From the sequence record OQ708376.1: DNA of 64,000 nt; one strand, 5' to 3'. The notes under the pieces were generated by a model. It was not told the origin of the DNA. It was given only the letters and a program-made list of their open reading frames with translations, and searched no databases. Both the position numbers and the translations under genes were made by a program. Of this stretch, positions 29,807 through 30,184 are shown one piece after another. Numbering within the stretch: position 1 is the stretch's first letter; every line of letters begins with the position of its first letter. The DNA is from Escherichia phage vB_EcoM_CRJP21.

Positions 29807-30184
29807 ATGGCTGCTAATGACGTTAAAGTAAAAACTATCCAAGCTATCGTAGTACTGAAAGATTCTACACCATCCCCTAAAGAATTAGTAATGGCTGGGA
29901 TGACTATGTTACATCAATACAACCCTGAATCACCTAACTATGTTCAAGAATACGAAGCTAAGAAGTTTAAAGAACATTGGCAGTCATGGATTAAAGATAA
30001 TGAAATGGAGCAGGTAGTTTATGCTGCTGATGACATTTTCGAACTGGAACAAATTGAATATCTAGCTGGTCAGCAATCAGTACCATTGAGCATTTTCGGT
30101 AATGGTGAAGAAGTTCTGGTATTGGGACCATTCACTGCTGATGATATCATTCACTTACTGAGTAATTGTAAGAAAATTGAATAA
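29807..30184 (+). CDS. hypothetical protein, weak Pth2-like (peptidyl-tRNA hydrolase 2) resemblance
   Basis: C-terminal EEVLVLGPFTADDIIHLL resembles the Pth2 C-terminal block TVLGIGPGP..IDKVTGHLKL. Confidence 0.25.
   Translation: MAANDVKVKTIQAIVVLKDSTPSPKELVMAGMTMLHQYNPESPNYVQEYEAKKFKEHWQSWIKDNEMEQVVYAADDIFELEQIEYLAGQQSVPLSIFGNGEEVLVLGPFTADDIIHLLSNCKKIE

Follow-up and report, generated by a model that had tools for sequence, protein, structure and literature searches.

Pth2-type peptidyl-tRNA hydrolases (Pth2/PTRH2/Bit1; PF01981) are represented by solved structures such as PDB 1wn2, 1xty, 2zv3, 1rlk, 3erj and 1q7s. In human PTRH2 the residues K81/Q85/D145/T157 form a putative active-site network (PMC10217894), and in yeast Pth2 the D174A substitution is the standard hydrolase-dead allele (PMC9892010). 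Jumbo phages are already known to encode Pth2 (PMC3622015, PMC5259590, PMC5852040, PMC7824862), which has been cited as a translation component of the archaeo-eukaryotic type that may be a relic of ancient replicons (PMC7824862). 'ORF188 (Pth2)' of phage RaK2 was named in the RaK2 paper (PMC3622015), and the CBB paper lists the canonical Pth as common to GAP32 and RaK2 only (PMC5259590). Here we describe a distinct Pth2-fold gene of these phages, located at 29807..30184 (+) in a 64,000-nucleotide stretch of Escherichia phage vB_EcoM_CRJP21 (OQ708376.1), hereafter the window. A first-pass annotation of the stretch had proposed this gene as a possible Pth2-like peptidyl-tRNA hydrolase. The proposed fold and homology are upheld by our analysis. 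The hydrolase function is not, as the active-site residues are absent, deleted or unconserved, the family is acidic, and relatives carry a separate canonical Pth2. We favor, at a probability of roughly 55%, a neofunctionalized Pth2-fold pseudoenzyme that probably lacks hydrolase activity and probably acts by binding rather than by ester hydrolysis, properties which we infer from the comparisons described below.

The window derives from a jumbo coliphage of the Asteriusvirus type. Across the 2.4 kb surrounding the Pth2-like gene it shares 99.8-99.9% identity with phAPEC6 and PBECO4 and 97.9% identity with 121Q, an Asteriusvirus and Rak2-like jumbo phage of ~350 kb. The gene is a clean open reading frame (ORF) of 125 codons with an ATG start, separated from the upstream ORF by only 12 nucleotides, and the encoded protein matches gp546 of Escherichia phage 121Q, annotated there as 'hypothetical protein', at 100% identity. 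Residues 8-124 give a full-length match to phrog_14786, whose function is unknown (profile positions 1-120 of 120; E=6.6e-57, 191.7 bits). GenBank orthologs in ph0011, fEgEco12, Turkey3/5 and Muenster are labelled 'peptidyl-tRNA hydrolase' or 'aminoacyl-tRNA hydrolase', and the results presented here counsel caution with the former name, which a few records already carry.

Evidence for Pth2 homology emerges only at the level of the family, as single-protein matches lie at the level of noise. Searched alone, the window protein matched PF01981 with 12.5 bits (E=0.18), below the gathering score of 23 bits and beside equally weak matches to unrelated families, and profile A1 gave no significant match to the PDB (E=0.37). 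Database searching identified 10 close homologs and an exhaustive profile search ~20 more distant ones, and the family alignment (A2) comprises 29 members. Left out of this alignment were P0015, a cadherin-like repeat protein whose match is a repeat-inflated artefact, and P0027, P0032 and P0033, which have a long multi-stretch match pattern like that of P0015, the only one of these to be inspected. PF01981 was matched by 9 of the 11 close members and by 11 of the 29 in the wider set (E<=0.01, best 2.2e-8), and the homolog P0009 scored above the gathering threshold (30.2 bits, E=5.6e-7). The only significant PDB matches of the A2 profile were six solved structures, all of Pth2 (E=7e-5 to 4e-3). 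An hhalign comparison with a canonical alignment of Sso Pth2 and phage ORF188-type proteins yielded a probability of 90.8% (E=1.2e-6, 100 columns), and it aligned the N-terminal KTIQAIVVLKD and the C-terminal blocks, which had been the grounds for the first-pass proposal, to beta1 and beta4-alpha4 of Pth2. Support for homology to Pth2 comes from transitive matches and from hhalign, but the window protein does not itself reach the threshold for membership in PF01981. Membership in the group of Pth2-fold proteins typified by Atu0240/DUF2000 (PDB 2gax; cellular, from Agrobacterium, not phage; 14% identity) was considered and rejected, as no family member matched the Pfam DUF2000 family at E<=1 and Pth2 proper fits better by sequence and structure. 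In one copy of the gene, P0005 from Salmonella phage SD-6_S16 (OR699182.1 19250-19570), ~17 residues corresponding to helix alpha3 (approximately 72-88) are missing and the C-terminus is altered, which probably reflects damage to the allele or a mistake in assembly or annotation.

Two independent AlphaFold2 (AF2) models, with predicted local distance difference test (pLDDT) values of 76 and 75, share the topology beta-alpha-alpha-beta-alpha-beta-beta-alpha-beta, which is the Pth2 fold; the deeper alignment supplied to the second run brought no gain in confidence and reproduced the topology. The predicted order of elements is beta1 (10-17), alpha1 (24-37), a family-specific insert (38-47), alpha2 (48-63), beta2 (69-74), alpha3 (77-89), beta3 (94-97), a shortened loop (98-102), beta4 (103-110), alpha4 (111-117) and beta5 (122-124). 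All 12 of the best Foldseek matches in the PDB are Pth2/Bit1. In the BFVD the top match is an ortholog, and the next named matches at E<=0.001 are canonical viral Pth2s, that of RaK2 included. Core residues common to Pth2 can be recognized as W61 (Sso W49), P93 before beta3 (P80) and G107-P108 at the end of beta4 (G103-P104), and the structural residues W61, G107 and P108 are kept in 29/29 family members. The resemblance first proposed from a single sequence is real at the family level by PF01981 matching, PDB profile search, hhalign, AF2 and Foldseek, and a Pth2-like fold in structure prediction, on which that proposal hinged, was returned by both AF2 and Foldseek. We regard the observation and the predicted fold as confirmed. 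In fold, order of secondary structure, profile homology and similar size, the window family is like Pth2/PTRH2/Bit1.

The active site is where the two families part. Catalytic residues were defined from published work (PMC9892010, PMC10217894) together with invariance in alignment A3, and the putative equivalence of Sso K18/Q22/D86/T98 to the human and yeast residues was drawn from residue spacing and the C-terminal offset. K18, Q22, D86, T96 and T98 are invariant in the alignment of Sso Pth2 with the ORF188-type phage Pth2s. Unlike these proteins, the window family is without the K/Q/D/T network, and its catalytic loop between beta3 and beta4, which in Pth2 bears D-A-G-x-T, has an 8-residue deletion placed there by hmmsearch, phmmer, MAFFT-merge and hhalign. 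The position of Sso K18, which with Q22 stands at the N-terminus of helix alpha1, is occupied by P24 in the window protein and by K in 0/29 family members; that of Q22 by E26, with Q in 1/29. The position of D86 corresponds to N99 by hmmsearch, phmmer and MAFFT and falls inside the deletion by hhalign, with D in 2/29 members. The T96/T98 columns, whose loop Thr residues form hydrogen bonds with the Gln in Pth2, are deleted in the window protein and in 26-28 of the 29 members, and a right-anchored alignment places E102 there (T98). With both the catalytic loop and the key residues lost, this is probably a non-hydrolytic, repurposed copy and not a working tRNA-rescue enzyme.

The family has also acquired features of its own. 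Relative to Pth2, it carries an 8-residue insertion between alpha1 and alpha2 with its own motif, Y-x-P-x-S-x-N-[YF]-V-G-x-x-E-A-x-x-F. Once redundancy has been filtered out, conservation among polar residues is limited to Q12 (82%) and E50 (91%), the latter lying within the motif. The location of so well conserved an acidic residue in a family-unique insertion, in a gene that is conserved near macro and NUDIX genes and possibly shares a terminator-bounded unit with the macro gene, could suggest an enzyme, hydrolase or transferase, that acts on a new substrate such as an ADP-ribose- or nucleotide-linked ester through a site formed around the E50 motif. We consider this very unlikely, since one acidic residue plus Q12 would make a thin active site, rapid sequence turnover is atypical for metabolic enzymes, and E50 would lie, judging from predicted helix lengths, at the end of alpha1 far from the canonical pocket; a precedent for such chemistry in the Pth2 fold was not found.

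Charge is a further point of difference from the neutral-to-basic Pth2/PTRH2/Bit1 proteins, as the window family is strongly acidic. All 29 members have a net charge of -5 to -13 and an isoelectric point (pI) of 4.25-5.09 (-10 and 4.64 for the window protein), compared with a pI of 5.9-9.1 for Sso Pth2 and the ORF188-type proteins. Neutral-to-basic character, a supporting though not strictly defining trait for binding of the tRNA acceptor arm, is thus absent from the Pth2-like protein.

The comparison with the canonical jumbo-phage enzymes (RaK2 ORF188, CBB_392, GAP32, Munch, XacN1 ORF295) reveals two Pth2-fold genes with different fates. The RaK2 ortholog of the window ORF is ORF037 (18.4 kb, 'hypothetical'), a gene distinct from ORF188 and at a separate locus. 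ORF188 scores 58.6 bits against PF01981 and keeps all catalytic residues. By tblastn, ORF188-type genes are present in RaK2, K64-1, Muenster, GAP32, CBB, fHe-Yen9, BF, Munch, 7t3, EJP2, XaC1 and others, and an ORF037-type gene is also present in each of the Rak2-like genomes among these and in Asteriusvirus. An ORF188-type match was found in 0 of ~30 Asteriusvirus genomes by whole-genome tblastn, and the ORF188 query detected no canonical Pth2 within the window. The two types belong to the same lineage, share the fold and a small single-domain architecture, and coexist in most Rak2-like genomes; BLASTP and tblastn between them gave no match. Unlike the canonical gene, the ORF037-type lies at another locus, is without the catalytic residues and is kept in Asteriusvirus. 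The degenerate paralog is retained in all lineages examined and the canonical enzyme is dispensable. The slot syntenic to ORF188 in 121Q, after the ORF187 homolog gp85, holds gp86 (125 residues; L008 3063-3440), which was rejected as a hidden canonical Pth2, having neither Pfam signal nor motif. With a gene of no detectable family in this slot, the canonical gene has been replaced, not just deleted. Asteriusviruses, among them phages proposed for therapy, probably encode no Pth activity of their own. In the literature searched, we did not find the two Pth2 paralogs recognized, the catalytic loss and uniform acidity of this one described, or the Pth2-like paralog identified as the only one kept in all lineages, with Asteriusviruses having this one alone.

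The paralogs also differ in rate of change. The Pth2-like protein is the fastest-evolving retained gene product of its block, with 32-41% identity to its counterparts in GAP32, Munch and XaC1 versus 50-75% for its neighbors, and over the same genome pairs it shows 29-33% identity versus 38-44% for the canonical paralog.

These distributions bear on the possibility that the gene encodes a working Pth2-type peptidyl-tRNA (or N-blocked aminoacyl-tRNA) hydrolase with a remodelled site, which would recycle tRNA from drop-off products or from those generated by host toxins, the tRNA-acetylating GNAT toxins among them. Several observations favor this possibility and weigh against a loss of catalysis. 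Homology and fold are those of Pth2, the gene lies in a conserved block with a CCA-adding enzyme, HPF and in some phages YqeY, and the hydrolase names already given to some orthologs agree with it. K25, at the N-terminus of alpha1, stands one or two positions off the catalytic Lys column (K in 15/29 members, K or R in ~60%), which leaves room for a partial site or a shifted Lys. Acidic residues often, but not always, surround the shortened loop, where E101 is invariant in the close clade and E102 adjoins it. The Pth2 catalytic mechanism itself rests on few mutagenesis studies. The charge argument is weakened, and is supportive only, because acidity is general in the phage proteome (median pI 5.3). 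As the sole Pth2-fold gene left in Asteriusvirus, the Pth2-like paralog could have taken over the canonical job there, and the absence of the canonical gene makes a remodelled hydrolase somewhat more plausible in that genus. We nevertheless judge such an enzyme unlikely. The catalytic Asp, Lys, Gln and Thr are unconserved and their loop is deleted, family-wide conservation is lacking for polar residues near the canonical pocket, a net charge of -10 over 125 residues is unfavorable for tRNA binding, and the protein evolves faster than the canonical enzyme. The coexistence of the canonical Pth2 in most relatives argues further for a different role of this paralog.

The favored pseudoenzyme is a diverged Pth2 paralog that keeps the alpha/beta fold and has lost the canonical catalytic apparatus. 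Acidic, fast-evolving and always retained, it would engage a putative basic partner, either a phage or a host protein, with the family-specific surface around the inserted Y-x-P...V-G-x-x-E50 motif as a candidate interaction site, and it would be expressed from the block that begins with the macro gene and extends to the genes for neck and sheath. Such a compact, conserved candidate pseudoenzyme is of interest because its partner could point to a new interaction, either in assembly or between phage and host. A more specific and quite improbable proposal is that this dead acidic protein, a universal fast-evolving core gene product of Rak2-like phages, works as an inhibitor or decoy that, for instance, imitates a factor handling tRNA ends or peptidyl-tRNA or takes up its site, or blocks a host tRNA-targeting defense or toxin, or else that it links the state of translation to assembly of the neck and tail. 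If true, this would be the first non-enzymatic role of the Pth2 fold in a virus.

Table 1. Coordinates of the Pth2-like gene, its parts and its neighbors in the window
Feature	Position	Strand	Remarks
Pth2-fold protein gene	29807..30184	+	125 residues; identical to 121Q gp546; RaK2 ORF037 ortholog; phrog_14786
Ribosome-binding region of the Pth2-like gene	29790..29806	+	AGAGG ~8 nucleotides before ATG
Family-specific motif Y38-F54 (YNPESPNYVQEYEAKKF)	29918..29968	+	Insert between alpha1 and alpha2 relative to Pth2; contains E50
Catalytic-loop remnant F97-E102 (FGNGEE)	30095..30112	+	8 residues shorter than the Pth2 loop
HPF/RaiA homolog	24605-24937	+	PF02482, 38 bits
Terminator-like hairpin	28949..28972	both	10-bp stem and T-run (consensus scan only)
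Macro-domain protein	28990-29466	+	16.4 bits against a Pfam gathering score of 22; phrog_335 match at 1e-45
Upstream neighbor	29477..29794	+	105 residues; phrog_527; function unknown, no Pfam match
Small TTG-start ORF	30177-30395	+	72 residues; 121Q gp547; 8-nucleotide overlap with the stop of the Pth2-like gene
T4 gp13-like neck protein (head-tail adaptor Ad2)	30431..31237	+	Invariant downstream neighbor of the family
Terminator-like hairpin	34993-35014	both	9-bp stem and T-run, after the sheath gene; next strong + strand site (consensus scan)

The gene resides in a conserved block (Table 1) with the order lysozyme, HPF, CCA-adding enzyme, NUDIX, glutaredoxin, YqeY in some genomes, macro, phrog_527 protein, Pth2-like protein, gp13-like neck protein, deoxynucleoside monophosphate kinase and tail sheath. 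This order extends from enterobacterial to Xanthomonas jumbo phages and to an 87-kb metagenomic contig. The proximity to macro and NUDIX genes noted in the first-pass annotation is real and conserved. Its suggestion of a translation-rescue theme with the CCA-adding enzyme and HPF holds as far as the linkage, which is conserved, and is not supported as a function, given the loss of the catalytic residues and an order that may simply be inherited, as all genomes sharing the block belong to one phage lineage. The phrog_527 protein directly adjoins the Pth2-like gene in 121Q, RaK2, GAP32 and Munch, is 51-54% identical to its RaK2, GAP32 and Munch copies, and is a possible functional partner of the Pth2-like protein.

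The tightest linkage of the Pth2-like gene is to the gp13-like neck gene, immediately upstream of which it lies in 7/7 contexts examined, including a short metagenomic contig in which the most distant member examined (~25% identity) is also directly upstream. This arrangement, the lack of a strong terminator-like site before the neck and sheath genes in a consensus scan, and the suitability of a small, acidic, fast-evolving protein for protein binding would fit a morphogenetic accessory factor, that is, a chaperone or assembly factor for the neck protein or for head completion that reuses the Pth2 fold. We regard this role as distinctly unlikely. The gene order may again be merely inherited within one lineage, no assembly factor with a Pth2 fold is known, and the RaK2 record labels the ortholog 'hypothetical protein', unlike the many other genes it calls 'virion structural protein'. 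In Asteriusvirus, moreover, an extra ORF (gp547) stands between the two genes. This ORF matches no Pfam family, and homologs of it are missing from the RaK2, GAP32, Munch, XaC1 and metagenome loci; the insertion looks specific to Asteriusvirus.

The two terminator-like hairpins may bracket a single transcription unit consisting of the macro, ORF036-type, Pth2-like, neck, deoxynucleoside monophosphate kinase and sheath genes. Matches to sigma-70-like promoters in the window are at the level of chance (41 found versus 43 expected). The T4 late-promoter core TATAAATA is depleted, with 2 occurrences in 64 kb versus 11.2 expected from shuffles, and evidently is not the late promoter of these T4-related phages.

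Several observations concern other members of the block. The macro-domain protein is a divergent Tk.4-type macro domain. No tRNA genes were found in the window by ARAGORN, despite the encoded CCA-adding enzyme. For the HPF/RaiA homolog of the window, tblastn (E<1e-3) gave no match among the HPF genes carried by the GAP32, Munch and L010 loci, and this homolog, too, seems to be evolving unusually fast. A YqeY-like gene (PF09424, 'tRNA amidotransferase') lies between glutaredoxin and macro in GAP32 (L005, 3041-3454), XaC1 (L007, 2575-3006) and a metagenomic relative (L010, 3587-4021), and the corresponding slot in the window (28400-28651) is occupied by an unrelated small ORF, gp542 (phrog_34640).
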